The position numbers and the translations under genes are program-made. DNA of 64,000 nt, from the NCBI GenBank assembly GCA_963832025.1, contig CAWHSF010000003.1, positions 143,665 through 207,664 of the forward strand. Reading direction: 5' to 3'. The DNA is from Candidatus Nomurabacteria bacterium. Lineage in GTDB: Bacteria > Patescibacteriota > Minisyncoccia > Phycocordibacterales > UBA9973. Shown in pieces: positions 4,507 to 55,556 of the stretch (position 1 is the stretch's first letter; the number at the start of each line of letters is the position of its first letter). A model generated the notes under the pieces. It was not told where the DNA came from. It did no database searches and was given only the letters and a program-made list of their open reading frames with translations.

Positions 4507-7500
4507 CTACTGCTCTATATACGTAGGTTTCATCTTGAATATAGAACACGAAGCAGTTGAGCCACTTGGCACACTGTCACAAATCCAAGTCCATTGTGAA
4601 GAGGTACTACTCTCACTAGAAGCATCTAATGTTCCTTGAGTACAAGTATTAATGGTTGTAGTAGAGCAAGAAACACTTCCTCCAGAAGGAGCTGCGTCTT
4701 GGCTAGCTGAACATATGCTGTCTGTGCCACTAGTTACGTGTAAACATTCCCAGTTTGCAGTTCCCCCTGGTGCTGGGAAAGAAATAACTGAAGGACTTTG
4801 GGTTCCTGACTCACAGAAAGTGTCAGAACCATAGCCCGGCCAATTGTAAGGGTAAGTTGTATTGTCTGCTGAACCACAAACTCCGTTAATAGAAGTTGCA
4901 GTAACACAAGTGCTACCATTCCAACTTGTGCCCGAAGTACAAGTGGCAGTCGATAAACTTGTCGCCAGTGATACAGCATTGTTATAAAGATAGAATGTCC
5001 TACCAGCATATGGAACAGCTAAGCCGTTTGCTGTGCCTGATTGAAAACTAGGACTGATTGTATTGGTTACATTTACGTTGGTCATTCCTGTCGCCGTAAT
5101 CGCAGTCGGAGTTCCGATTGGGTTAGTTATACTCCAGTTTAAGTTTACCGTACAAGTACTTGCTCCGGATAAAATGATACAGGAGGTGATGGGTGGAGTG
5201 AGGGTGCCGGACATTCCGACATTCCATTCGGAGAAGAAGAGCAAATACTTCCATTCCAACTTGTTCCCGAAGTACAAGTGGCTGTAGCTGAACTTGTAGC
5301 CAGTGATAGTGCATCATTGTAAAGATAGAATGTCCTACCTAGATATGGCACAACTAAACCGTTTGCTGTGCCTGATTGAAAACTAGGACTGATTGTATTG
5401 GTTACATTTACGTTGGTCATTCCTACTGCTGCAATCGCAGTCGGAGTTCCGATTGGGTTAGTTATACTCCAATTTAAGTTTACCGTGCAAGTACTTGCTC
5501 CGGATAGAATGATACAGGAGGAGGTGGGTGGAGTGAGGGTGCCGGTCATTACTAACTGACTAAACGTCGCGGTAACTGCTTTAGCTGCAGTCATGGTAAG
5601 AGAACATGTGCCTGTTCCGGTGCAAGCTCCAGTCCATCCGGTGAAGGTTGAGCCAGTGGTTGGGGTGGCGGTCAAAACTACTGCTGTGTTGTAGTTGTAA
5701 CTTTGAGAACAGTCAGCACCGCAACTGATACCGGCAGGACTACTGGTGACTGTTCCGGTGCCGGTGCCGGCAGGAGTGACAGTGAGAGCTTCTTGATTTG
5801 GAGAGCAGATAGTTCCGTTCCAAGTTGTGTTGGCGGCACAAGTTGCTGTAGCAACGCTGCTGTCGAGTTGAATAGCATCGTTGTAAAGATAGAATGTTCT
5901 ACCAGGATATGGCACAACTAAACCGGTTGCTGTGCCTGATTGAGGACTAGTTAAAGTTGTTGTTACATTTACGTTGGTCATTCCTGTCGCCGTAATCGCA
6001 GTCGGAGTTCCGATTGGGTTAGTTATACTCCAATTTAAGTTTACCGTACAAGTACTTGCTCCGGATAAGATCGTGCAAGAAATAGTCGCTGGAGTGAGCG
6101 TGCCGGTCATTTGAGTGAAGTTTGCAATCACCGTACAGTTGGCGGTAATTGCTCCGGTGGTATAAGTACTTCCAGACAATGTACCTCCACAAGTGCCGGT
6201 AGTTGTACCGATGGAGTAACCGGTACTGGGGGTGAGGGTGAAAGCTTTGTTGGAATCGTAATTAACTACTTGCACGTTACTTGGAGAGATGGTTCCACTA
6301 CCGGTTCCGACAGAGGGGGTGACGTTGTAGGTGTTGATTGTGAAGTTTGCAATCACCGTACAGTTGGCGGTAATTGCTCCCGTGGTGTAAGTACTTCCAG
6401 ATAGTGTACCTGCAGGACAAGTACCGGTAGTTGTACCGATGGAGTAACCGGTGCTTGCGGTGAGGGTGAAAGCTTTGGTGGAACCGTAATTAACTACTTG
6501 TGCGTTATTTGGAGAAATTGTTCCTCCGGTTCCGGCAGAAGGAGTGACGTTGTAGGTGTTGATTGTGAAGTTTGCAATCACCGTACAGTTGGCGGTAATT
6601 GCTCCCGTGGTGTAAGTACTTCCAGATAGTGTACCTGCAGGACAAGTACCGGTAGTTGTACCGATGGAGTAACCGGTGCTTGCGGTGAGGGTGAAAGCTT
6701 TGGTGGAACCGTAATTAACTACTTGTGCGTTATTTGGAGAAATTGTTCCCTCCGGTTCCGGCAGAAGGGGTGACGGTGTAGGTGTTGATTGTGAAGTTTG
6801 CAATCACCGTACAGTTGGCGGTAATTGCTCCCGTGGTGTAAGTACTTCCAGATAGTGTACCTGCAGGACAAGTACCGGTAGTTGTACCGATGGAGTAACC
6901 GGTACTTGCGGTGAGGGTGAAAGCTTTGGTGGAACCGTAATTAACTACTTGTGCGTTATTTGGAGAAATTGTTCCTCCGGTTCCGGCAGAGGGGGTGACG
7001 TTGTAGGTGTTGATTGTGAAGTTTGCAATCACCGTACAGTTGGCGGTAATTGCTCCCGTGGTGTAAGTACTTCCAGATAGTGTACCTGCAGGACAAGTAC
7101 CGGTAGTTGTACCGATGGAGTAACCGGTACTTGGGGTGAGGGTGAAAGCTTTGGTGGAACCGTAATTAACTACTTGTGCGTTATTTGGAGAAATTGTTCC
7201 TCCGGTTCCGGCAGAAGGAGTGACGGTGTAGGTGTTTAGCGTAAACGTCGCGGTAACTGCTTTAGCTGCAGTCATGGTAAGAGAACATGTGCCTGTTCCG
7301 GTGCAAGCTCCAGTCCATCCGGTGAAGGTTGAGCCAGTGGTTGGGGTGGCGGTCAAAACTACTGCTGTGTTGTAGTTGTAACTTTGAGAACAGTCAGCAC
7401 CGCAACTGATACCGGCAGGACTACTGGTGACTGTTCCGGTGCCGGTGCCGGCAGGAGTGACAGTGAGAGCTTCTTGATTTGGAGAGCAGATAGTTCCGTT

Positions 7501-8985
7501 CCAAGTTGTGTTGGCGGCGCAGGTACAATTAACAGTTAGGCCAGAACCGTTGGGAGAAGTCGGAACAAGCGATTTGGCATTATTGTAAAGATAGAAAGTT
7601 TTACCAGCATATGGGACAGTCGTTGGCACACTAGTTCCAGAATCTCCCAAAAAGACGTTTACACCAGAACTAGTTATAGCAGAACCATTTGGAACTTCTG
7701 GATTTGTAACATTCCAAGTTAAATTTACAGTACCACTACCAGAATTAGCTGGAACAGTACAAGCCGTAGCACTCATCGTACCCGACATAGTACCAACAAT
7801 AATAGTAAATGGTATTTGTGGGCCAAAAGCAGTGCTTCCATTAAACATCTGCCATATTTCTGTGTATGTCTTAGCGGCAGATGGAGCAGTTAAAGAACTT
7901 AAGGAAAAAGTTGTTGTTGCGTTAGAAGCAACATCGGCGCTACCACTAGTAGATTCTGTATATACTGCACTACAGTTGGTATTGCTGTTCCACGTTCCAC
8001 CACATCCAGCCTGACAGACATTGGAACTTGTCCCGCAACCTACGCTTCCATTAACAGTACATGAATTTGCGAGACCATTCCAGCTTCCGCCACACATTCC
8101 ACAATTACTAGCGTTAGCACTACAGTTAAAAGAACCACTAGAAGAACACGAACCCAAACACGATTGAGAGTTATATTTACACGTCTGAGTGGTTGTCTGA
8201 CTATATGGTATGGGATTCGGACTAGAACTAAAGCCTCCAGTAATATCTTTCAGTTTGATTGTGCTTGAATAATTTGTGATCGTGGCTGTACATGTGTCTC
8301 CTAAAGTTGTAGGACAAGAATAGAGACCATCAGTTGCTCCACAGTCTGATGATTTAGAAATCGATTTTTGGTCTGACACCCAATTAGGAGTTGCGCCAGT
8401 GCTGGTATTTTTGATAGTAAATATGTAAGGCCCACTTACTTGGCTTGTGTTCATCTGAGTCGGCATACTCGGAGAAAGTGGAGATACAAAAGAATCATTT
8501 AAGGTAGTTGATGGAGAGCCAAAAGATGCAGTACCGTCTGAAAGATAAGTAACAGAACCCCAAGGCGCATAACCTGGATATGGATTAGAATTTAAAGTAA
8601 AAGAATATGTTCCCTGCTCAGGATGATCACTTGTGCCACAATTATTATAACTTGAATTATAAGCCGTTTGTGTAATGGTAATATTACTAGAAGGAATACT
8701 TCCAGATACTCCATCAATTGTATATGAAAGATAACCACCCGACTCGAAGATGTCTAGTGGAGGACTTAATCCGAGTGTATTATCACATGTGACAGTTTGA
8801 ACGTTATAGCCACTTGAGAAAGTTCCAGAAATGGTAATACTGCTACTAGTAGAACTGGCACCCACGGTGACATTGGAAGTACAGCCACTGCCAGTGCATG
8901 ATGCTTTTGTCGTGGAAACATTAAAGAGAGCAAATAGAGCAATAACTGCTATAAGCAAACCAGAAACAAAAATTTTCTTTTTCAT
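4507..8985 (-). CDS. giant repeat-rich secreted surface protein (adhesin-like, InlB-B-repeat-like modules); reading frame interrupted twice
   Basis: Signal peptide MKKKIFVSGLLIAVIALFALF. Three tracked ORFs (6730..9021, 5145..6803, 4507..5277) join at protein-repeat level. They are broken by an extra C at 6748-6750 and an 8-bp tandem duplication at 5210-5225. The first and third ORFs share a frame (9021-5277=3744). Confidence 0.75.
5210..5225. repeat. perfect 8-bp tandem duplication (gacattcc x2) causing a frameshift in the surface protein gene
   Basis: Read directly. Deleting one unit restores ...CSSSPNGMSGTLTPPITSC..., which matches the other module junctions. Confidence 0.85.
5561..5837. 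repeat. 277-bp direct repeat, copy 1 (partner at 7242-7518)
   Basis: taaacgtcgcggtaactgctttagctgcagtcatgg...ccaagttgtgttggcggc appears identical by eye in both places. Confidence 0.85.
6115..7240. repeat. tandem array, 5 x 225 bp (75-aa module FTINTYxVTPSAGTGGTISPNNAQVVNYGSTKAFTL...CTVIAN)
   Basis: The marker gtgaagtttgcaatcaccg recurs at 6115, 6340, 6565, 6791 and 7016. The single 226-bp period contains the extra C. Confidence 0.9.
7242..7518. repeat. 277-bp direct repeat, copy 2
   Basis: See the partner at 5561-5837. Encodes the same ...EALTVTPAGTGTGTVTSSPAGISCGADC... module. Confidence 0.85.
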
Positions 8986-9190: not shown

Positions 9191-10408
9191 ATGTTGGACC
9201 TAAAAACATTTAAATCGGCCTTAGAGCAGTTAGAGGAAGAAAGGAAAATTCCAAAAGAAAAAATATTGGAAGCCATTGAGCAAGCGATGGCTGCAGCTTA
9301 TAAAAAAGATTACGGCAAGAAGGGGCAAATCATCCGCGCCAAGTTTGACCTGGACACAGGCAAAACAGATTTTTTTCAAGTCAAAATCGTGGTTGATGAA
9401 ACTATCGCTATTTTGGATCACGAAAATTCTCTCGGCCATAGCCAAATAGGCGAAACACAAAAAAAACACGAAGAAGAATATTCTGTAAAAGATGCGGGAG
9501 ATGAACGCGTACATTTTAATGCCGAACATCACATTCTGCTCGAAGACGCAAAAAAAATAAAAAAAGGGGTAGAACTCAATGATGAAATTATTTTTCCGTT
9601 GGAACAAAAAGATGATTACGGACGTATCGCTGCGCAAACTGCCAAGCAAGTCATCATTCAAAAAATCCGCGAAGCAGAACGCACTTCCATTATCGATGAA
9701 TATGGCACCAAAGAAGGTGAGATTATTTCCGGTGTCGTGCAAAAAGTTGAACGAGGAAATGTTTATGTCGATTTCAACCGAGCGACAGGTATTTTGCCGG
9801 CCGAAGAACAAATTCCCGGAGAATACTGGCAACGTGGTCAACGCATTAGAGCTTACCTATATAGCGTAGAAGATACACCGCGTGGCATAAATTTGCGCCT
9901 TTCTCGCACCCATCCGAAATTTATAGAACGTCTTTTTGCCATGGAAGCTCCAGAAATAGAAAATGGAGTCGTGGAAATAAAAGGAGTAGCCCGCGAAGCC
10001 GGAGCACGTTCAAAAATTTCAGTTTACTCCAGCGATGAGCATATTGATGCTGTCGGTTCTTGTGTCGGGCAAAAAGGCACCCGAGTAAATACTATCACCG
10101 GAGAACTGTCCGGAGAAAAAATTGATATCATCCCGTGGTCGGCAGATGCCAAACAATTTGTCGCAAGCGCTCTTTCTCCAGCCAAAGTTATTTCCATTGA
10201 AATGGATGAAGGCGAACACAAAGCAATAGTAGAAGTAGGAAACGACCAGCTTTCACTAGCCATCGGCAAGGGTGGACAAAATGTGCGCTTGGCGGCTAAA
10301 CTAACCGGATGGAGAATAGATATAAAAGGCGACGGAAAAGAAATGGCCACAACCAATGGAGATAAAGTAGAAGTGAAACCTGCCCACGCAGGTGAGAAAG
10401 AAGAATAA
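9191..10408 (+). CDS. nusA: transcription termination/antitermination factor NusA
   Basis: N-terminal domain, S1 and two KH regions (GxxGQNVRLAAKLTGW). Confidence 0.9.
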   Translation: MLDLKTFKSALEQLEEERKIPKEKILEAIEQAMAAAYKKDYGKKGQIIRAKFDLDTGKTDFFQVKIVVDETIAILDHENSLGHSQIGETQKKHEEEYSVKDAGDERVHFNAEHHILLEDAKKIKKGVELNDEIIFPLEQKDDYGRIAAQTAKQVIIQKIREAERTSIIDEYGTKEGEIISGVVQKVERGNVYVDFNRATGILPAEEQIPGEYWQRGQRIRAYLYSVEDTPRGINLRLSRTHPKFIERLFAMEAPEIENGVVEIKGVAREAGARSKISVYSSDEHIDAVGSCVGQKGTRVNTITGELSGEKIDIIPWSADAKQFVASALSPAKVISIEMDEGEHKAIVEVGNDQLSLAIGKGGQNVRLAAKLTGWRIDIKGDGKEMATTNGDKVEVKPAHAGEKEE

Positions 10409-12481: not shown

Positions 12482-12500
12482 ATAAAAATTGTCGAAGGTG

Positions 12501-12616
12501 TAGTTTTTATGAAACTTTGTGCAGGTCATTCGACTCTGAGAGTCTCAGACTCGATGAGCGGGTAGCCGAGCAAAGCAAAAATTCAGCAGAATTTTATGCG
12601 TGTTGAATAAAAACTA
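12501..12616. repeat. family-B palindromic element, 116 bp (inverted twin at 54417-54532)
   Basis: The reverse complement matches 54417-54532 at 114/116 positions. Core gcgggtagccgagca, outer arms tagtttttatgaaac / gttgaataaaaacta. Confidence 0.9.
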
Positions 12617-29810: not shown

Positions 29811-29856
29811 TCCAGACGTTGGACGTCTGTGTTCTTACAGACGTCCAACGTCTGGA
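29811..29856. repeat. family-A nested palindrome
   Basis: Arms tccagacgttggacgtctg / cagacgtccaacgtctgga (19 bp, 8-nt loop). Each arm is itself palindromic (cagacgt tgg acgtctg). Confidence 0.9.
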
Positions 29857-36903: not shown

Positions 36904-37416
36904 TTAGAACTTGCCACGCATTAAATATTTCTCTGGGTCCAAAGATAAATCCACAAAATCATCCACCGCTTCGCGAAGTTTTCCAGAAGTTGATTTGCCG
37001 AAAGAAACTACTTCCACTTGCACACCATTGGTCTGTAAATATTCCACCAGCGGAACAAAATCTCCATCACCGGAAACTATCACGACAGAATCCAATCGAG
37101 GTGACATTTTGATTGCATCCACAGCTAGGCCCACATCCCAATCTGCCTTTTTCGCACCACCGGCAAATATTTGCAAGTCTTTGGTTTTTGTTTCAATTCC
37201 TAATTTTGCCAAAGCTTCAAAAAAGTTTTTTTCATCTCCTGCTTCTGTGGTGATCACATAAGCTACCGCACGAACGAGCTTTCTGCCAGCGACTGCATCT
37301 TTCAAAACCGCGCCGAAATTCACTCGCGCCTGATAAAGGTTGCGAGCTGAGTGATATAAATTTTGAGTATCGATAAAAACACCTACTCTCTGTTCTTTAT
37401 GTTTTATAACTGTCAT
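36904..37416 (-). CDS. NYN/LabA-like domain protein (predicted RNase)
   Basis: RVGVFIDTQNLYHSAR ... VIVSGDGDFVPLVEYLQ. Confidence 0.75.
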   Translation of the reverse strand: MTVIKHKEQRVGVFIDTQNLYHSARNLYQARVNFGAVLKDAVAGRKLVRAVAYVITTEAGDEKNFFEALAKLGIETKTKDLQIFAGGAKKADWDVGLAVDAIKMSPRLDSVVIVSGDGDFVPLVEYLQTNGVQVEVVSFGKSTSGKLREAVDDFVDLSLDPEKYLMRGKF

Positions 37417-37450
37417 ATATATATTGTAGCAGATTTTTAAACTTGTTGCA

Positions 37451-37543
37451 GGCGTGCTTTTTAGAAAGCCTTGCGTAGGCGGACGCGCCGAGCAGTTCGC
37501 TGGCGTAGCAACGCCAGATAGATTGCTTTATAAAAAGCACGCC
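37451..37543. repeat. family-B palindromic element (diverged copy)
   Basis: Outer arms ggcgtgctttttagaaagc / gctttataaaaagcacgcc, core ccttgcgtaggcgg..gccgagcagttcgc, inner hairpin ctggcgt agca acgccag. Confidence 0.85.
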
Positions 37544-37568
37544 AAGAAAGAGTTTATAAATCTTCCTC

Positions 37569-37832
37569 TTATGCGAGATCCATTTTCTTCATCAAGGCAA
37601 GGTAACGAGGCTTACTTTTTCGTTCCAAATATTTCAAATGAGTACGTCGGTCTGCCACCATTTTGATAAGCCCTCGGCGAGAATGATTATCTTTTTTGTG
37701 TTTTTTTAAATGTTTGGCCAAGGCATCAATTTGGCTGGACAAAACAGCCACTTGAACTTCCGGAGAACCTGTATCTTTCTCGTGAATTTGGCTTTTCTTT
37801 ATAATTGCTTGCTTTTTCTTAGTTGCTAACAT
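37569..37832 (-). CDS. rpsO: 30S ribosomal protein S15
   Basis: [38 protein letters not shown]. Confidence 0.93.
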
Positions 37833-37890
37833 GCTTCAAATATTAGCATAAATAAGGGAAAAATGCAAGTCCTAAGGGCCATCAAGGGAA

Positions 37891-37980
37891 ATTGTTGTTT
37901 TAGAAAGCCTTGCGCAGGCGGGTAGCCGAGCAGTTCGCTCCGCAAGCTTGCGGAGATAGATTGCTTTATAAAATAACAAT
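37891..37980. repeat. family-B palindromic element (diverged copy)
   Basis: Arms attgttgttttagaaagc / gctttataaaataacaat, core ccttgcgcaggcgggtagccgagcagttcgc, inner perfect palindrome ctccgcaagcttgcggag. Confidence 0.85.
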
Positions 37981-38023
37981 TCCCGAAGATGGAAAATATT
38001 GTGCGACATGCTAAAATGAACAG

Positions 38024-38977
38024 ATGGTCACGGAAATGGACAAACTGAAGCGTGAATTTTTGGAATACATTGAAATTGAAAAAGGTAGAGCTATCCGCAC
38101 GGTGGAAAATTATGAACATTATCTCACTGTCTTTTTTGAATTTGCAAAAATTAAAAGTCCAAGTGATATTACCGATGCCTCGGTACGAGAATTTCGTCTG
38201 TGGCTAAACAGACAATCCACTGGCAATAATAGGTTGACTGGGAACACTGTTTCCAAAAAAACTCAAAATTATTACATGATAGCTCTGCGAGTTTTTTTGA
38301 AGTATTTAAACAAACGTGGTATTAAATCCATGCCGAGAGACCAAATAGAATTGGCCAAAACTCCAGAGCGTTCGCTCGACCTCATCTCCCCCGAAGAACT
38401 GACTAGATTACTAAAATCCCCTAGCGGAAATGATATAAAAGACCTACGCGACAAGGCTATTCTTGAGTTGCTTTTCTCTACTGGCCTGCGCGTATCCGAA
38501 CTCTGTTCACTAACCAATGATTTTGATTTTAAAAGAGACGAAATTTCTATCCGCGGAAAAGGTGGCAAGGTACGCGTCGTTTTTATTTCCGACGAAGCAA
38601 AAACCGCTGTAAGAAAATATCTGGACGCGCGGAAGGATATGAATGATGCGCTATTTGTTCAAGTAGATACTGAAAAGTTTCCCCAAAAAGAGAATATGAG
38701 AAACAAAAAAGAACTAAAGGATAAAAACGGAGCACTGACCAGAAGATCGATCGAAAGAATTGTGAAACAACACGCAATCAAAGCTGGCATCACAAAAAAA
38801 GTCACTCCGCACGTCATTCGCCACTCTTTTGCCACCGATTTATTAAACAACGGAGCCGACATTCGTTCGGTGCAAGTAATGCTTGGCCATTCAAGTATTT
38901 CCACTACACAAATTTATACCCACGTGACCGACAAACAGTTACGTGAAATACATAAAAAATTTCACAACAAAAACTAG
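38024..38977 (+). CDS. tyrosine recombinase XerC/XerD family
   Basis: RHSFATDLL and LGHSSISTTQIYTH catalytic motifs. The start may be the ATG at 38036. Confidence 0.85.
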   Translation: MVTEMDKLKREFLEYIEIEKGRAIRTVENYEHYLTVFFEFAKIKSPSDITDASVREFRLWLNRQSTGNNRLTGNTVSKKTQNYYMIALRVFLKYLNKRGIKSMPRDQIELAKTPERSLDLISPEELTRLLKSPSGNDIKDLRDKAILELLFSTGLRVSELCSLTNDFDFKRDEISIRGKGGKVRVVFISDEAKTAVRKYLDARKDMNDALFVQVDTEKFPQKENMRNKKELKDKNGALTRRSIERIVKQHAIKAGITKKVTPHVIRHSFATDLLNNGADIRSVQVMLGHSSISTTQIYTHVTDKQLREIHKKFHNKN

Positions 38978-39025
38978 GAGAAATTTTTTATTAATTATCA
39001 TAATTTCGTGTTATGATTAATTATC

Positions 39026-39814
39026 ATGAAAATCATAAGTTGGAACGTAAATGGAATACGCGCAGTGCATAAAAAGGGGTTTTTCGTGCCATTCATTGAA
39101 AAATACAAACCCGATATTTTGTGTCTACAAGAAACGAAAGCCGAACAACACCAAAACGAAGTGGTTTTAGATGATTATGAAGAATATTGGAACTCCGCCA
39201 TCAAAAAAGGTTACAGTGGAACTGCAATTTTCACCAAAGAAAAACCTATCGCGGTAATGTTAAATATTCCAGAGAGAATTCTAAAAAAGTACAACCTAAA
39301 AGATAGATACGGAGACCCAAACACTGAAGGAAGAATTGTTTCCGCTGAGTTTAAACATTTCTATGTAGTAAGTGTTTACACTCCGAATGCCAAAGACGAT
39401 CTTACGAGAATTCCTCTTCGTCACAAGCAATGGGATCCGGCATTTTTGGAGTATGTAAAAGAATTGGAAAAAAATAAACCTGTAATATTTTGCGGGGATT
39501 TAAACGTTGCGCATACTGCAGATGACCTCGCAAATCCAAAGCCAAATGAAGGGAAAAAGGGGTTCACGGTTGAAGAGCGTGAAGGAATAGACAACATTAT
39601 AAAAGCCGGTTTTGTTGATACTTTTCGCATGTTTACCAAGGGAAATGGACATTATACTTGGTGGAGTCATTTTGCCAATTCAAGAGCGCGAAACGTCGGC
39701 TGGAGAATTGATTATTTTTTCGTCAGTCAAAAACTCGACAAAAAAGTGAAGAAAGCCGAAATTTTGCCAGAAGTTTTAGGCTCAGACCATTGTCCAATTT
39801 TATTAGAACTTTAG
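39026..39814 (+). CDS. xth: exodeoxyribonuclease III
   Basis: MKIISWNVNGIR and the C-terminal SDHCP motif. Confidence 0.9.
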   Translation: MKIISWNVNGIRAVHKKGFFVPFIEKYKPDILCLQETKAEQHQNEVVLDDYEEYWNSAIKKGYSGTAIFTKEKPIAVMLNIPERILKKYNLKDRYGDPNTEGRIVSAEFKHFYVVSVYTPNAKDDLTRIPLRHKQWDPAFLEYVKELEKNKPVIFCGDLNVAHTADDLANPKPNEGKKGFTVEEREGIDNIIKAGFVDTFRMFTKGNGHYTWWSHFANSRARNVGWRIDYFFVSQKLDKKVKKAEILPEVLGSDHCPILLEL

Positions 39815-39933
39815 AAGCTTTGTGAATTATAATTTTTAAGAGACTTTGCGCAGGCGGGTAGCCGAGCAGGAACAAATTTTCAACAGAAAATTATGTGTGT
39901 CGATTAAAAATTGATAATTCATGAAGCTTTGTG
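39814..39933. mobile_element. family-B MITE-like element with terminal inverted repeats and an 11-bp flanking direct repeat
   Basis: The direct repeat gaagctttgtg at 39814-39824 and 39923-39933 flanks TIRs gaattataatttttaagagac / gtcgattaaaaattgataattc and the core gcgcaggcgggtagccgagca. Confidence 0.7.
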
Positions 39934-39946
39934 TTAAAATTTAGAC

Positions 39947-40609
39947 ATGAACCACAATAGATTAGATCAATTAGCTGATGGAATTTTTGCCATCGTGATG
40001 ACGATTCTCGTTTTTGAGATTAAAGTGCCGATCATTTGGGGGCCAATAGACAACGCAGGCCTTTGGCTCCAGATCAAACAACTTGCTCCGGTTTTCTTGA
40101 GTTATCTTTTGAGTTTCTCGCTTCTTTTCACTTACTGGCGCGCTCATCATTTTTTTATTTCCATCTACGCAAAAAACATCGACGCCATGCTCACCAATAT
40201 CAATGCTTTGTTTTTCATGCTGATTAGCTTAATTCCTTTTTCCGCCAGCTTGCTCGGCCAATATAGCAGAAATGAATTATCGGTGGTGATTTTTAGCATT
40301 CACACAATTTTAATCGGACTTACCTTGTACTGGATGCGCCGATATGTTTTCTATTCCCCATCAATTAAAAATCCCGAAATTACCAAACGGGAAATCCGCG
40401 GAAGTGTGATTCGCACCCTGGTTCCCGTCTTTTTCGCGCTCGTCGCCATTCTCCTTTGCTTCTGGAGTATAAAAGTTTCTATCGTAATGCTTACCTTGGC
40501 GGTACTCTTCAATCTTTCCACTTATAGCACTCGCCTCTTTGAGAATATCTTAAAATTTCTCCACAAATTCTTTTTTGGAGAAGATGTAAAAGGCCACTTT
40601 GCGGACTAG
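39947..40609 (+). CDS. TMEM175/DUF1211-family membrane protein (putative K+ channel)
   Basis: RLDQLADGIFAIVMTILVFEI signature, 6 predicted TM segments. Confidence 0.7.
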   Translation: MNHNRLDQLADGIFAIVMTILVFEIKVPIIWGPIDNAGLWLQIKQLAPVFLSYLLSFSLLFTYWRAHHFFISIYAKNIDAMLTNINALFFMLISLIPFSASLLGQYSRNELSVVIFSIHTILIGLTLYWMRRYVFYSPSIKNPEITKREIRGSVIRTLVPVFFALVAILLCFWSIKVSIVMLTLAVLFNLSTYSTRLFENILKFLHKFFFGEDVKGHFAD

Positions 40610-43713: not shown

Positions 43714-45360
43714 TTAGTTTACTCCGTGTTTTTGGTGAAGTTTGGCAACTTCTTCTTCCTCAAGCTCTTCTTTTTTTTCTTTCCCTCGCTCGCCGAGAGT
43801 TTTTAGCTCATCGTCTCCGAGCATATTTAGAGATTTTACCAAGTGCTGAAAGATGTTCTACGGTATTTTTCTCTGGCGCATCCAAAACTTCTTCAAGTAA
43901 AGCGTGTAAAATCCATCCCATGCGTGGTCCAGGCGTAATTCCGAGTTCTTTTATCATAAATTCTCCATTTATTTTCAATTGTCCGACAGAAATTGGGTCG
44001 CGAAGTGCTTCTTCGATCATTGCAAAATATTTTCGCAATCGATAGGTGCTTCTTTTTTCTTCATCCCCACCCTGTCACACTCACGGACATTCATCAGAGC
44101 CCAAATATTTTCTTTTCCGACTTTGGCAATAATTCTTCGCACAGCGGAAAGCGTAATCAGTTCTGTATCGGAAAAAAACATATGATTATGAACAAGTTTT
44201 TCCACCAACTCAATTTCTTTTTTGGGAAATTTTAATCTCTCCATTATTTTTTTTGTCATCCGCGCACCGATAACTTCATGACCGTAAAAAGTATATTGCT
44301 TTTTTGGCTGTCGAGATGTAGGAGAATTCTGCTGGCGGAAGGTTCCGGCCGAAGGCTGGAGAAAAGCCGAAGAATTTTTCTGCATCTCGACAGCCTCACG
44401 TCTACTTCTTGGCTTTCCAATATCATGAAAAAGTGCTGCGAGCCTTATTTCCAAAGGCCAATTTTTGTCTGCTGCATGTTGCACCGCGTGTAATAAATGA
44501 TTCCAAACATCATAAATATGTTCCCCCGATTGTTCGCAATTTATTCCCTCTTCCAATTCCGGAATTATATTTTTTAGCAAACCAAATTTTTGCAACATCA
44601 AAATTCCACTCGCAGGATTTTTTGATAAAATTATTTTTTCAAATTCATCACGAATTCTTTCTTCCGATATTTTTTTTATTAATTCAGAATTTTTTAAAAT
44701 ACTTTCCATTGTTTCATACGACACAGAAAAATCTAGTTGGCAAGCAAAGCGCACAGCTCGCAACATACGTAGTGCATCTTCTTTAAATCTATCATCTGGA
44801 TTTCCTACCGCTCTAATGGTTTTGTTTTCAATGTCCTTTATCCCGTTATATAAATCTACAATATGTCTTTTATCTTGTCCTTTATACTTGCCTGCCAAAG
44901 CTTTAGCGTCGGCAGGTCCAAAGCCATCGCATTAACTGTGAAATCACGTCTTTTAAGATCATCTTCAAGCTTATCACTGAAAATTACTTCATCTGGATGC
45001 CTAAAATCAGTATATTTTGTTTCAATTCTATAAGGAGTGACTTCAATGATCATATATTCTGATGTTTCACGAGAAACATCTTCAATTTGTGTTACATGTG
45101 GAACATCAGTCTGTTTAGGCAGGCACAACTCCAACAGTTCCAAAGTTATTTTCATATATAGTTTTTTCAAATAAATCAATAATTTGTTCTGGCTTAGCAT
45201 CAGTGGTAACATCCCAATCCTTTGGCTCTCTACCATTAACAAGATCACGAACACATCCACCGACTAGGTACGCCTCAAAACCAGCTTCTTCTAATCTATC
45301 TGTTACTTGTGAAACTTCTTTGGGGATTTTCGATATTAAATTTTTTACGTCTTTTTCCAC
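43714..45360 (-). pseudogene. cca: CCA-adding tRNA nucleotidyltransferase with HD domain; frame broken about 4 times (error versus pseudogene unresolved)
   Basis: Segments [20 protein letters not shown]..., [11 protein letters not shown], ...RFKEDALRMLRAVRFACQL, LAALFHDIGKP and the C-terminal tail lie in different frames. Breaks are near 45120, 44930, the T6 run at 44052-44057 and the T4 run at 43834-43837. The GTG start at 45360 is tentative. Confidence 0.75.
44306..44395. repeat. family-B-like element, exactly 90 nt, in frame inside cca
   Basis: Perfect 13-bp terminal inverted repeats ggctgtcgagatg / catctcgacagcc. Interior has gaattctgctg and gccgaag. Encodes AVEMQKNSSAFLQPSAGTFRQQNSPTSRQP. 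Confidence 0.8.
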
Positions 45361-52267: not shown

Positions 52268-54391
52268 GTGACAGATGAGACAAAACATTTGGAAGGATTA
52301 AACCCTGAGCAAAAAGAGGCGGCGCTTCATATGAAGGGTCCGCTTCTTATTGTGGCTGGAGCGGGAGCGGGCAAGACTAAAACTATTACGCACAGAATTG
52401 TGAATCTGATAAAGAATGGCGTTCCTCCAGAAAAAATATTGGCGGTGACATTTACCAACAAGGCTGCGAAGGAAATGCGAGAGAGAGTCATTGCAGAAAT
52501 TAATAAAAACTTCGTCGGCAATGCCTTTTCTCAGGTCCTCGGTTCTCCGGGTCCCTATCCCGGCCAGACCATTCCAAAAGGCCTTGCCGACTTCGTAAAT
52601 AAGGCACCTTTTGTCAGCACCTTTCATTCTTTGGGAGTTTTTATTATAAAAGAAAACGCCAGATTGCTTGGGCTGACTAGGTATTTCACGATTTTGGATG
52701 AGGGAGATTCGACAGGAATGATAAAAGAAATAATGAAAAGCTTGGGGATAGACCCAAAACAATACGATCCGAAAAAAATAAAAAATATTATTTCGCGCGA
52801 GAAAGGAAAATTTGTTTATTTAACGGAATACACGGAAAGAGAAAATAGCAGTCTGGGAAGAATTGTAGCCCAAATCTGGAATTTATATGAGAAACAAAAA
52901 ATGAAGGAAAATTCTTTGGATTTTGACGATTTACTTTTAAAAGCGACAAAATTGTTAAAAGACAACAAGGAAATTAGGGAACTTTATCAAGATAAATGGG
53001 AATATATTCATATAGACGAATATCAAGACACCAATGAAGTGCAATATTTGATGACCAAATTGCTTTCCGAAAAATACAAAAATATTTGCGTGGTCGGGGA
53101 TGCAGACCAGAATATTTATTCTTGGCGCGGAGCAAATTTAAAAAATATTTTGAGTTTTGAGAAAGATTATCCGAATGCAAAAATAATTTTATTGGAGCAA
53201 AATTATCGCTCGACCAAAAATATTCTGGAAGCGGCAAATGAAATCATTAAAAAAAATAAATATAGACCGGATAAAAATTTATTTACAAAAAATGTTGTCG
53301 GAGAAAAAATCGGCTTGTATGAAGCATTGGATGAAACCGACGAAGCGGATTTTGTAGCGACAAAAATTTTAGAACTAATGGACAAGGGAAAAGATTTGTT
53401 TTTGCGGGGTCTCTCGCAGGCCGACGGGCCGAGAGGGAACGCTGTGCGAGCACGCACAGACAGTGACCTCGCAAAAACAGAATCTTTTTCTTTGTCCGAA
53501 ATCGCCCTGTTATATCGCGCAAATTTTCAATCGCGCGCGCTGGAAGAAGCCATGCTTCGCTACAACATTCCATACCAAGTTTTGGGTGTTAAGTTTTTTG
53601 AAAGAAAAGAAATCAAAGACACTTTGGCATATCTGCGCGCAGCGCTGAATCCGGAAAGTTTGTCCGACATAAAAAGAATAATAAATTTCCCGGCGCAGAG
53701 GCATCGGCAAGGTTACATTATTGAAAATATTTGCCGGAGAACGGGAAACTTTACCGATAAAAGTAAGAATTAAAGTTGATAATTTTTATACAACATTGGA
53801 AGAAATAAAAGAAAAAATATTAAAAGTGAAAAAACGAGCGAGGTAATAAAATTTGTAGTGAAAAAATCCGGCATTGAACAAGAATTGAGTAGCGGGGGAG
53901 ATGAAGATATTGAAAGATTGGAAAACATAAAAGAGCTTGCGACCTTGGCATTAAAATATGATAATTTAGAAAATGGAGCCGGTGTAGAAAAACTTTTAGA
54001 AGATGCATCATTGGCATCGGACCAAGATTCACTGATGATAAATCAAGAGAAGAAAGAAAGAAAAGAAGTAAATGCAGTGAAATTAATGACCGTGCATGCG
54101 TCAAAAGGCCTTGAATTCAAATACGTTTTTGTCACTGGTTTGGAAGATGGACTTTTCCCGCACGAAAGACAAAATGAAGGACAGAGTGGTGAAGACAGAG
54201 AAGAAGAACGCAGACTTTTTTACGTGGCGCTGACCAGAGCTAAAGAAAAATTATTTTTATCTTTAGCAAATTTCCGTACAATTTTCGGCTCACGCAACAT
54301 AAACGCACCATCAGAATTTATTAGCGACATACCGGCAGATTTATTAGAAAAAGAAGGAGAGGGGCACGGCATAAAAACAATTTATTTATGA
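52268..54391 (+). CDS. pcrA: UvrD/PcrA-family superfamily-1 DNA helicase; a 140-nt internal segment lies in a shifted frame
   Basis: AGAGAGKTKTITHR, TFTNKAAKEM, HIDEYQDTN, VGDADQNIYSWRGA, YRSTKNIL, LLYRANFQSR and VKLMTVHASKGLEF motifs. The motif RGIGKVTLLKIF is readable only in the +1 frame between about 53696 and 53834. Confidence 0.88.
53391..53487. repeat. family-B-like element in frame inside pcrA
   Basis: Arms agatttgtttttgcg / cgcaaaaacagaatct. Interior tcgcaggccgacgggccgagag resembles the core gcgcaggcgggtagccgagca. Encodes DLFLRGLSQADGPRGNAVRARTDSDLAKTESF. Confidence 0.7.
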
Positions 54392-54416: not shown

Positions 54417-54532
54417 TAGTTTTTATTCAACACACATAAAATTCTGCTGAATTTTTGCTTTGCTCGGCTACCCGCTCATCGAGTCTGAGACTCTCAGAGT
54501 CGAATGACCTGCGCAAAGTTTCATAAAAACTA
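54417..54532. repeat. family-B palindromic element, 116 bp (inverted twin of 12501-12616)
   Basis: 114/116 identical to the reverse complement of 12501-12616. Confidence 0.9.
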
Positions 54533-55510: not shown

Positions 55511-55556
55511 TCCAGACGTTGGACGTCTGTATCCGTCCAGACGTCCAACGTCTGGA
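55511..55556. repeat. family-A nested palindrome just after the ksgA stop
   Basis: Arms are identical to 29811-29856 (tccagacgttggacgtctg / cagacgtccaacgtctgga); the loop differs. Confidence 0.9.

Follow-up and report, generated by a model that had tools for sequence, protein, structure and literature searches.

Introduction

Rickettsia palindromic elements (RPE) are palindromes that fold into long hairpins and are dispersed in many copies over a reduced genome, without a transposase. They lie between genes and also in frame within coding genes, where they are translated in a preferred frame; protein-coding palindromes of this kind are, to our knowledge, chiefly known from Rickettsia. The length of RPE is ∼105–146 bp (Ogata et al, 2000, as listed in PMC3184786). 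[quoted passage not shown] REP/REPIN sequences, which RAYT (Y1/HUH) transposases mobilize, and the palindrome-associated elements derived from IS200/IS605 are extragenic hairpins with neither target-site duplications nor classical terminal repeats; here, it is the structure of the single-stranded DNA that is recognized (PMC3116915, PMC3333891). Mitochondrial genes of Nematomorpha contain coding palindromes, described as long inverted repeats of which both arms are translated (PMC6649704). The present analysis concerns a 64,000-nucleotide stretch of the genome of a Candidatus Nomurabacteria bacterium (contig CAWHSF010000003.1, positions 143,665–207,664 of the forward strand; hereafter the window, to which all coordinates refer) and, within it, a sequence at 39814–39930 between xth and a gene of the TMEM175 family. 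A preliminary description had taken this sequence for a MITE that duplicated its target site and might supply the promoter of the downstream gene. We propose instead that it probably is one copy of a dispersed family of structured palindromes, which resembles RPE in being a non-autonomous mobile or selfish repeat.

Structure of the element between xth and the TMEM175-like gene

The element is situated between xth (exonuclease III family, 39026–39814, stop codon TAG at 39812–39814) and the TMEM175-family gene (39947–40609). As the preliminary description had stated, an 11-mer, GAAGCTTTGTG, is found exactly at 39814–39824 and again at 39923–39933; it does not occur elsewhere in the window. The extent of the element was deduced from the minimum-free-energy fold including the flanks and from the extension of the stem, which gave the following parts:

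39814–39930, + strand: copy 3, a complete 117-nt palindrome between the xth stop codon and the promoter of the TMEM175-like gene
39814–39844, + strand: 5′ arm of the outer helix P1, pairing with 39900–39930 and containing the whole left 11-mer, with AAGCTT at 39815–39820
39845–39870, + strand: P2, the conserved core UUGCGCAGGCGGGUAGCCGAGCAG, comprising hairpin P2b (GGC-GGGUA-GCC) on helix P2a, with a 3/2 internal loop (GCA/GA) between the two
39872–39896, + strand: P3, a variable hairpin (AAAUUUUC-AACA-GAAAAUU) with CA/UG closing and a 4-nt loop of the consensus ARCW
39900–39930, + strand: 3′ arm of P1, holding the −35-like TTGATA (39911–39916, with its G bulged out) as well as nucleotides 1–8 of the right 11-mer
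39932–39940, + strand: extended −10 box TGtTAAAAT, 6 nt before the ATG at 39947 and not part of the helix; its TG forms the end of the right 11-mer

Every copy of the family is organized in this way: a long outer helix, P1, which is free in sequence, closes a conserved three-way junction formed by P2 and P3. Two covariance models, R1 and R2, which were built from the alignments of the family's types A and B (see below), match copy 3 with 41.5 bits (R1) and 92.8 bits (R2, E 5e-29). The inverted arms that had been put forward as terminal inverted repeats, gaattataatttttaagagac and gtcgattaaaaattgataattc, do exist, albeit imperfectly (with two 1-nt indels), and pairing extends 10 bp past them, across the entire left 11-mer (39814–39824 with 39920–39930); terminal repeats of a transposon they are not, as the arms are not conserved between copies, whereas the centre is. 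The three copies in the window that match the strict core illustrate this. The 24-nt core TTGCGCAGGCGGGTAGCCGAGCAG recurs without a mismatch at 37910 and 39846, so that P2 of copy 3 agrees with that of copy 2 in 24 of 24 nt, and a near copy is present at 37471 (copy 1). The arms flanking these cores are unrelated between the three copies, yet within each copy they pair with one another, and the fold of the + strand is, in all three, more stable than that of the − strand by 4–6 kcal/mol. Helices P2a and P2b covary both in the sample of loci chosen for TMEM175 (see below) and in the copy at 53392 (CUCUC/GAGAG), and compensatory changes were found at every pair of P3 by RNAalifold and by pair counts. 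The 5′ arm of P1 of copy 3 is shared, with compensatory changes, by the loci L076 and L148 (L-numbers denote loci in other genomes).

Across all subtypes the architecture is the same, with a P2b loop that is either of the GNNG type or GGGUA and an ARCW tetraloop in P3. Minimum free energies range between −23 and −57 kcal/mol and the corresponding z-scores between −3.7 and −7.6. The elements are 90–135 nt long, the median length of the palindrome being 95 nt.

A family of structured palindromes in Patescibacteria

A pattern scan of one genome per species retrieved ∼58 copies from records of Patescibacteria (labelled Nomurabacteria, Paceibacterota and Saccharibacteria); the remaining matches were chance occurrences in high-G+C genomes. 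The covariance models recovered 38 more copies from loci that had been picked solely for encoding an ortholog of the TMEM175-like protein. Subtypes A and B have P1 and P2 in common and differ around P3, and two further subtypes, C and D, display the same architecture. Compensatory double changes (RNAalifold) were present at 14 of 29 pairs in type A and at 18 of 26 pairs in type B. When only the 38 copies from the TMEM175-chosen loci were considered, 93.5% of the cells in the alignment were paired, compared with 63.8% in shuffled sequences and 38–52% when the partners were slid against each other, and double changes affected 24 of the 26 pairs; the core helices P2a (G-C, U-A, A-U) and P2b covaried too. 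In paired columns, G-U outnumbered A-C by 57:10, 51:10 and 50:6 (∼5:1), but in the outer arms by just 124:91, which is a weak excess. The orientation relative to the flanking genes was random (15 convergent, 12 sense, 16 antisense and 12 divergent cases), and the family occupies tight gene junctions in either orientation.

The element is widespread in Patescibacteria and apparently undescribed: a search of the literature, including one for the core sequence itself, returned no description of it. At the gathering threshold, Rfam 15 reported four tRNAs alone, and with E values up to 10 over 37300–40050, nothing overlapped the copies on their strand; ARAGORN, too, found the four tRNAs and nothing else. 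The search for a longer, autonomous version, in which the ends of the element would lie 0.3–4 kb apart, yielded chance matches only, as did the search of viral contigs for the core (one match, in a high-G+C phage).

Several known classes were considered for the fold and rejected. A cis-regulatory leader or riboswitch does not agree with random orientation and with a −10 box that follows the element and lies 6 nt from the ATG. An intrinsic terminator does not agree with the lack of terminator-like sites in 39700–40050, and for the roughly one-quarter of copies located between divergent genes there is nothing to terminate. Integron attC sites were dismissed by reading the alignments, in which the outer ends are variable and the centre is conserved. 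As for domain IV of the signal recognition particle RNA (CAGG...AGCAG), a GGC(G)/(C)GCC hairpin accommodates the loops GGGUA, GACG, GGCG and GUCG, which a GNAR tetraloop on a CGG/CCG stem does not, and the respective Rfam models gave no match. A kink-turn in the 3/2 loop would need tandem G-A pairs, which, again by reading, are impossible there. A possible similarity to the helix 20 region of 16S rRNA (AAAGC..GCAGGCGG), or a mimic of an S15-binding site beside rpsO, was dropped because copies occur at many unrelated loci and lie antisense to rpsO. A tRNA-like D arm was not supported, and the cores of hammerhead and twister ribozymes are absent.

Occupied, empty and in-frame sites

The notion of a small, dispersed element without a transposase, already contained in the preliminary description, was borne out by orthologous sites that are filled, empty or differently filled and by insertions in frame within genes. 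The junction between xth or murI and the TMEM175-like gene is empty in more than 20 loci and carries an element of type A, B, C or D in others; even L119, with 91% identity the closest relative, differs at the TMEM175 junction in the subtype that it carries and in having murI as an additional gene. A domain search with Pfam over 46 open reading frames (ORFs) of the window detected no transposase, reverse transcriptase or HUH domain, in keeping with the earlier statement that the window does not encode a transposase. It is very likely that these palindromes constitute a family that is mobile or turning over.

Two of the copies in the window lie inside essential genes. Compared with solved structures, the PcrA-like and the KsgA-like protein each have ∼33 extra residues at the position of a surface loop (PcrA: query 376–411 versus chain 349–353 of 2pjr; KsgA: query 99–133 versus chain 113–123 of 6ifs), both inserts coincide with a match of the covariance models, and neither contains a stop codon. 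Among 120 homologs of PcrA (P0001–P0120), the corresponding site was occupied by ∼33 residues translating the core of the element (RGVSQADGPRGSAPRARGDSDP), by the peptide of type D, by peptides encoded by other palindromes, by tandems of them, or by almost nothing. The type D peptide, TLGRSDGDGQRKFSAENFRGESE, is found in KsgA of the window and in PcrA of other genomes, in the same frame. The DNA of eight orthologous PcrA inserts can be aligned without gaps; both the arms and the encoded peptides differ, but every pair of arms is complementary, with stems of 25–30 bp, folding energies between −64 and −96 kcal/mol and compensatory double changes at 27 of 50 pairs. Such changes cannot result solely from the sampling of different master copies. 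Either the hairpin is selected for at the locus, or the arms are repaired within the palindrome, one serving as template for the other. Since the arms possibly correct each other, covariation alone does not prove a function as RNA.

The insertion site in PcrA is a hot spot across Patescibacteria, as seen in P0001–P0120 and in the loci L200–L207, where the length of the protein varies between 644 and 752 amino acids and at least eight palindrome-encoded peptides are found (e.g., FSQVLGSPGPYPGQTI, SNFSSLRPSRSTEWDPREAQ and NGDVAEQDILRK), sometimes two or three in tandem. A second, unrelated hairpin insert is present in the N-terminal part of PcrA in the window (52514–52592; query 75–114 versus chain 77–87 of 2pjr); the peptide it encodes, NAFSQVLGSPGPYPGQTIPKGLADF, is also met with in other genomes, there at the other of the two PcrA sites.

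Between xth and murI of L076 (reverse complement, ∼4747–4770), a remnant of 23 nt was noticed that consists of the two outer ends of a full-length element (AAACTTGTTGCA + CCAAAAAAGAGAT) without the inner palindrome. At this junction, L055 carries an intact copy in the opposite orientation, which suggests deletion of the palindrome together with inversion in place. As a target site, the solo outer-end motif was encountered in this single case only.

Origin of the 11-nt direct repeat

The preliminary description had interpreted the two 11-mers as a target-site duplication. The left one, however, lies within the helix of copy 3, in which the two AAGCTT segments pair with each other and TGTG with CATG, the latter via two G-U pairs. 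In L076 and L148, the orthologous gene directly follows the same element, with inner arms that are the same and arm ends that again read AGCTT...GAAGCT. No direct repeat is present at either locus, which shows that AAGCTT belongs to the element. As it is self-complementary, its presence in the stem creates a direct repeat automatically. The 4 nt beside the arm ends covary as well: the window has TGTG/CATG, L076 has CCTA/TAGG and L148 has CATA/TATG. The extra G of the 11-mer is the last base of the xth stop codon, and the TGTG on the right corresponds to TRTG of the extended −10 box (GGTG in L076, CAGTG in L148); TTTGTG is found at empty sites too, for example, in L147. The repeat is thus a by-product of the stop-codon G, AAGCTT and TGTG.

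For the 58 copies, the maximum length of a direct repeat near the ends agrees with the null distribution, and an adjacent duplication, where there is any, amounts to 0–3 nt, with one case of 6. Copies without flanking duplication were precisely what the preliminary description had named as evidence against an insertion footprint, and the 57 other copies are of that sort. Under the empirical null derived from the 58 copies, ∼0.04 direct repeats of at least 10 nt would be expected close to the ends, and one was seen; AAGCTT accounts for 6 of the 11 bases, which leaves five extra matches to explain, a coincidence estimated at ∼1% for a case that was selected post hoc. Taken together, the 11-mer is very probably not a target-site duplication.

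Promoter of the TMEM175-like gene

TTGATA (39911–39916) and TAAAAT (39935–39940), separated by 18 nt and ending 6 nt before the ATG at 39947, are present as the preliminary description had reported, and the combination scores 10/12. That the element donated this promoter is mostly unsupported, because the −10 box and its TG are outside the helix and are conserved at empty sites; only the −35-like TTGATA is part of an arm. In ∼80 orthologous loci (72–91% protein identity), TGnTAnnnT is located exactly 6 nt before the ATG, whatever lies upstream: xth directly, murI directly, an element of type A, B, C or D, or an unrelated palindrome. At empty sites, xth directly precedes the gene in L120, L121, L126, L135, L137, L147, L161, L164–166, L177, L180–183 and others; murI directly precedes it in L123, L136 and L139. 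As the −10 box is conserved at empty and at differently filled loci, the promoter belongs to the gene, and the TMEM175-like gene uses an extended −10 promoter of its own. Of 48 gene starts examined in the window, 8 have the motif TGnTAnnnT at a distance of 5–7 nt in front of the ATG, compared with 1% of all ATGs; examples are 37423–37434 (− strand), 38008–38016 and 39932–39940, and the genes beside copies 1 and 2 have it too. The mRNAs of these genes, that of the TMEM175-like gene included, are probably leaderless. The G of TTGATA is the conserved bulge of the arm; its distance from the −10 box is 18 nt in the window, L076, L148 and L152 (four of seven related copies), and 6 nt in L186. Any role of TTGATA as a −35 box is optional and would be a weak one.

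Two further arrangements were observed at this junction. Where murI and the TMEM175-like gene are divergent (L186, L189, L190, L076 and L148), the arms span both promoters, and the extended −10 boxes are mirror images of each other, each 6 nt from its ATG. In L122, L124, L127, L144, L151, L176 and L192, an unrelated palindrome (CATGAATCCCGTTAGAAGT...ACTTCTAACGGG), ∼150 nt before the TMEM175 start, is located exactly at the start codon, with ATGAA(A/Y) on both of its sides, which has the appearance of a real short duplication or of a strictly preferred target.

Further copies and other palindromes in the window

Three copies with the strict core and seven matches of the covariance models (starting at 12501, 37451, 37890, 39826, 53392, 54417 on the − strand, and 54851) were found in the 64 kb, which corresponds to at least seven copies and a density of ∼1 element per 9 kb. 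Apart from copy 3, these are:

37441–37556, + strand: copy 1, full-length type A, with an extra outer helix AAACUU/GAGUUU and a 6x6 internal loop; R1 120.7 bits at 37451–37553
37886–37985, + strand: copy 2, type A, with distinct arms GGGAAAUUGUUGUUUU / AAAAUAACAAUUCCC; R1 103.2 bits
53380–53497, + strand: PcrA copy, in frame in the PcrA/UvrD-like ORF, a 118-nt palindrome encoding LFLRGLSQADGPRGNAVRARTDSD, with P2a CUCUC/GAGAG; R1 57.4 bits
54845–54948, + strand: KsgA copy, in frame in the KsgA/RsmA ORF, with the type D core CUUGGUAGGAGCGACGGCGACGGACAGAG, encoding EQDILERTLGRSDGDGQRKFSAENFRGESENILLP; R2 43.1 bits
12487–12632, + strand: full-length type B copy between the genes for an H+-pyrophosphatase and trigger factor; R2 51.7 bits
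54405–54545, − strand: near-twin of the copy at 12487, between a C-terminal fragment of PcrA and ksgA; R2 54.3 bits

Copy 1 lies between rpsO and a gene for an NYN-domain protein, antisense to both, and its outer ends recur at many different loci in other genomes. Copy 2 is located between the divergent promoters of rpsO and the xerC/D-like gene. In both full-length type B copies, a hairpin of ∼34–40 nt (TCATTCGACTCTGAGAGTCTCAGACTCGATGAGC) is nested in the loop of P2b (12524–12560 and 54473–54509), and another long extension is present at the same place in L055, L146, L158, L170 and L191; hairpin loops seem to accept further palindromes.

Another palindrome family is represented at 29811–29856 and 55511–55556 (TCCAGACGTTGGACGTCTG...CAGACGTCCAACGTCTGGA), with perfect stems of 19–21 bp and a z-score of about −8; one of the two copies directly follows the stop codon of ksgA. 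PcrA is split into two ORFs (52268–53773 and 53858–54391), while its homologs are single proteins of ∼700 amino acids, and a gene resembling CCA-adding enzyme/poly(A) polymerase also appears to be split (44017–44766 and 44856–45236); pseudogenes, frameshifts or errors of assembly may underlie these cases. At 4900–7620, ORFs with divergent InlB B-repeat domains, beside genes for a type IV pilus/type II secretion system, contain large repeats, tandem and dispersed, with periods of 225 and 335 nt. In the product of 9191–10408, the N-terminal domain of NusA spans residues 7–164 for a Pfam profile of 119 positions, which suggests, from the alignment, that a further insertion of ∼40 residues may be present.

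Discussion

An RPE-like, non-autonomous repeat best combines the presence of the family at tight junctions and in ORFs, the empty sites and the conserved centre. How such an element would spread and be maintained can be outlined only tentatively, and we give the following scheme somewhat less than an even chance. The element may spread as a folded single strand (DNA or RNA corresponding to the + strand) that would be recognized by its conserved junction and not by its ends. The arms would be kept complementary in place, either because one arm templates the correction of the other or because the hairpin is selected. Any effect on the neighbouring genes would be local at most, with the hairpin insulating xth from the downstream promoter and TTGATA adding a weak −35 box. 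There is also a modest chance that the junction is the recognition module of an undescribed, structure-guided system of mobility or repair in Patescibacteria, in which the folded centre of a single-stranded intermediate would be recognized instead of the ends and each arm would be actively copied from, or corrected by, the other; the palindrome would then repair itself, extend into its flanks (where it would mirror promoters and codons) and persist in essential genes over long periods of evolution. As another possibility, the module may have become a domesticated RNA that has a protein partner of its own.

Several points weigh against the RPE-like repeat. Neither a mobilizing enzyme in the window nor a longer autonomous version was found, and there is no pair of filled and empty sites from one population that would fix the exact junctions. 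The 11-mer is rarer than the simple null predicts, and removal of the element together with one 11-mer leaves a plausible empty site, like that of L120 or L121. The weak excess of G-U in the outer arms leaves the choice of one strand as the folded one tentative, and alignments fitted to a covariance model lean toward the structure of that model. Finally, the conservation of core nucleotides at orthologous sites, even inside an ORF, exceeds what a dead selfish insertion would show and could mean a function for the host or as RNA.

The alternatives have to be weighed against the same observations. A classical MITE would have inserted into GAAGCTTTGTG, duplicated these 11 bp and brought along the promoter of the TMEM175-like gene. 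Such a history would account for an exact 11-mer flanking the arms, rare as it is under the empirical null, for the site that excision with one 11-mer would leave (the xth stop codon, 8 nt and TGtTAAAAT, which resembles the empty loci L120, L121 and L147), and for the 10/12 score of the putative promoter. It fails to account for the base-pairing of the left 11-mer, for the AGCTT/GAAGCT arm ends of L076 and L148, which are without direct repeat, and for a −10 box and TG that are conserved at empty sites, and the window holds no transposase. More generally, the classification as MITE proposed in the preliminary description found no basis, as conserved terminal inverted repeats were not observed in the seven copies of the window and ∼95 others, nor a target-site duplication of fixed length in 58 copies, and we regard it as very improbable.

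A functional family of structured RNAs, that is, a three-way junction of the + strand that would bind a protein or ligand as a small RNA or as part of an mRNA (there signalling stability, processing or termination), with covariation as the trace of selection on RNA structure at every locus, has more in its favour and is nevertheless unlikely. Covariation in every helix, orthologs included, the fivefold preponderance of G-U over A-C in paired columns, the more stable + strand of copies 1–3 and the conserved nucleotides of loops and junction, with a core retained at orthologous sites, are all expected of an RNA; random orientation relative to the flanking genes, in-frame copies in essential genes, a presence that differs between close relatives, the lack of an Rfam match with E up to 10 and of a terminator-like U tract are not. 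In addition, copies upstream of leaderless promoters are outside of 5′ untranslated regions. Less probable still is a host site at the level of DNA, on which a nucleoid protein, gyrase or an Xer-type recombinase would bind a cruciform or hairpin or recombine, and which arm-to-arm conversion would keep intact. This explanation would fit use independent of orientation, the weak G-U excess in the outer arms and long, near-perfect arms that are kept in place even at a cost to the encoded peptide. A gene for an enzyme of the XerC/D type, the sole recombinase of the window, is indeed located between copies 2 and 3 (38024–38977), but it looks like that of an ordinary housekeeping Xer, and it has the same context in L080. 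Moreover, the conserved part is an asymmetric three-way junction with single-strand-specific G-U pairs, which would not be expected if a duplex or cruciform were recognized, conserved outer boxes such as those of attC or dif were not seen, and insertions into ORFs are hard to reconcile with a host function.

For annotation, an insertion footprint with a donated promoter, as first described, would be misleading. Genomes of the candidate phyla radiation, which are usually thought to be streamlined, carry dense hairpin elements between genes and within the essential proteins PcrA and KsgA. Such inserts inflate and diversify protein loops, can break assemblies and could confound searches for noncoding RNA in metagenomes. 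What sets the family apart is a conserved three-way-junction centre, arms of free sequence and palindromes that are maintained within ORFs by compensatory change, and these features raise the questions of how an element moves without terminal repeats or duplications, how long palindromes are kept up and whether covariation always signifies a function as RNA.

With MITEs, the element shares its small size, the lack of a transposase, dispersal, insertion polymorphism, a long predicted stem-loop and a possible effect on neighbouring transcription; it differs from them in that its arms vary and match no terminal repeats of insertion sequences, whereas its centre is conserved. REP/REPIN and IS200/IS605-derived elements offer a plausible analogy for its movement, although the design is reversed: a REPIN has conserved REP arms (with a GTAG or CGTC head) and a variable loop. 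RAYT, TnpA or Y1/HUH proteins were absent from the window, and no conserved flanking tetranucleotide was noticed. The palindromes of Nematomorpha are organellar and much longer and are not known to have a conserved structured core or to form a dispersed intergenic family. The closest parallel is with RPE, which are likewise hairpin repeats of 100–150 nt without a transposase and with in-frame coding inserts, both of which were seen here (the latter in PcrA and KsgA). The host phylum, Patescibacteria, is unrelated, and the element described here has a conserved, covarying three-way-junction centre with free arms. Its orthologous copies within ORFs keep the palindrome by compensatory change, a feature not known to us from RPE. 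The likeness that we propose is one in the way of working and does not extend to a claim of kinship in sequence.

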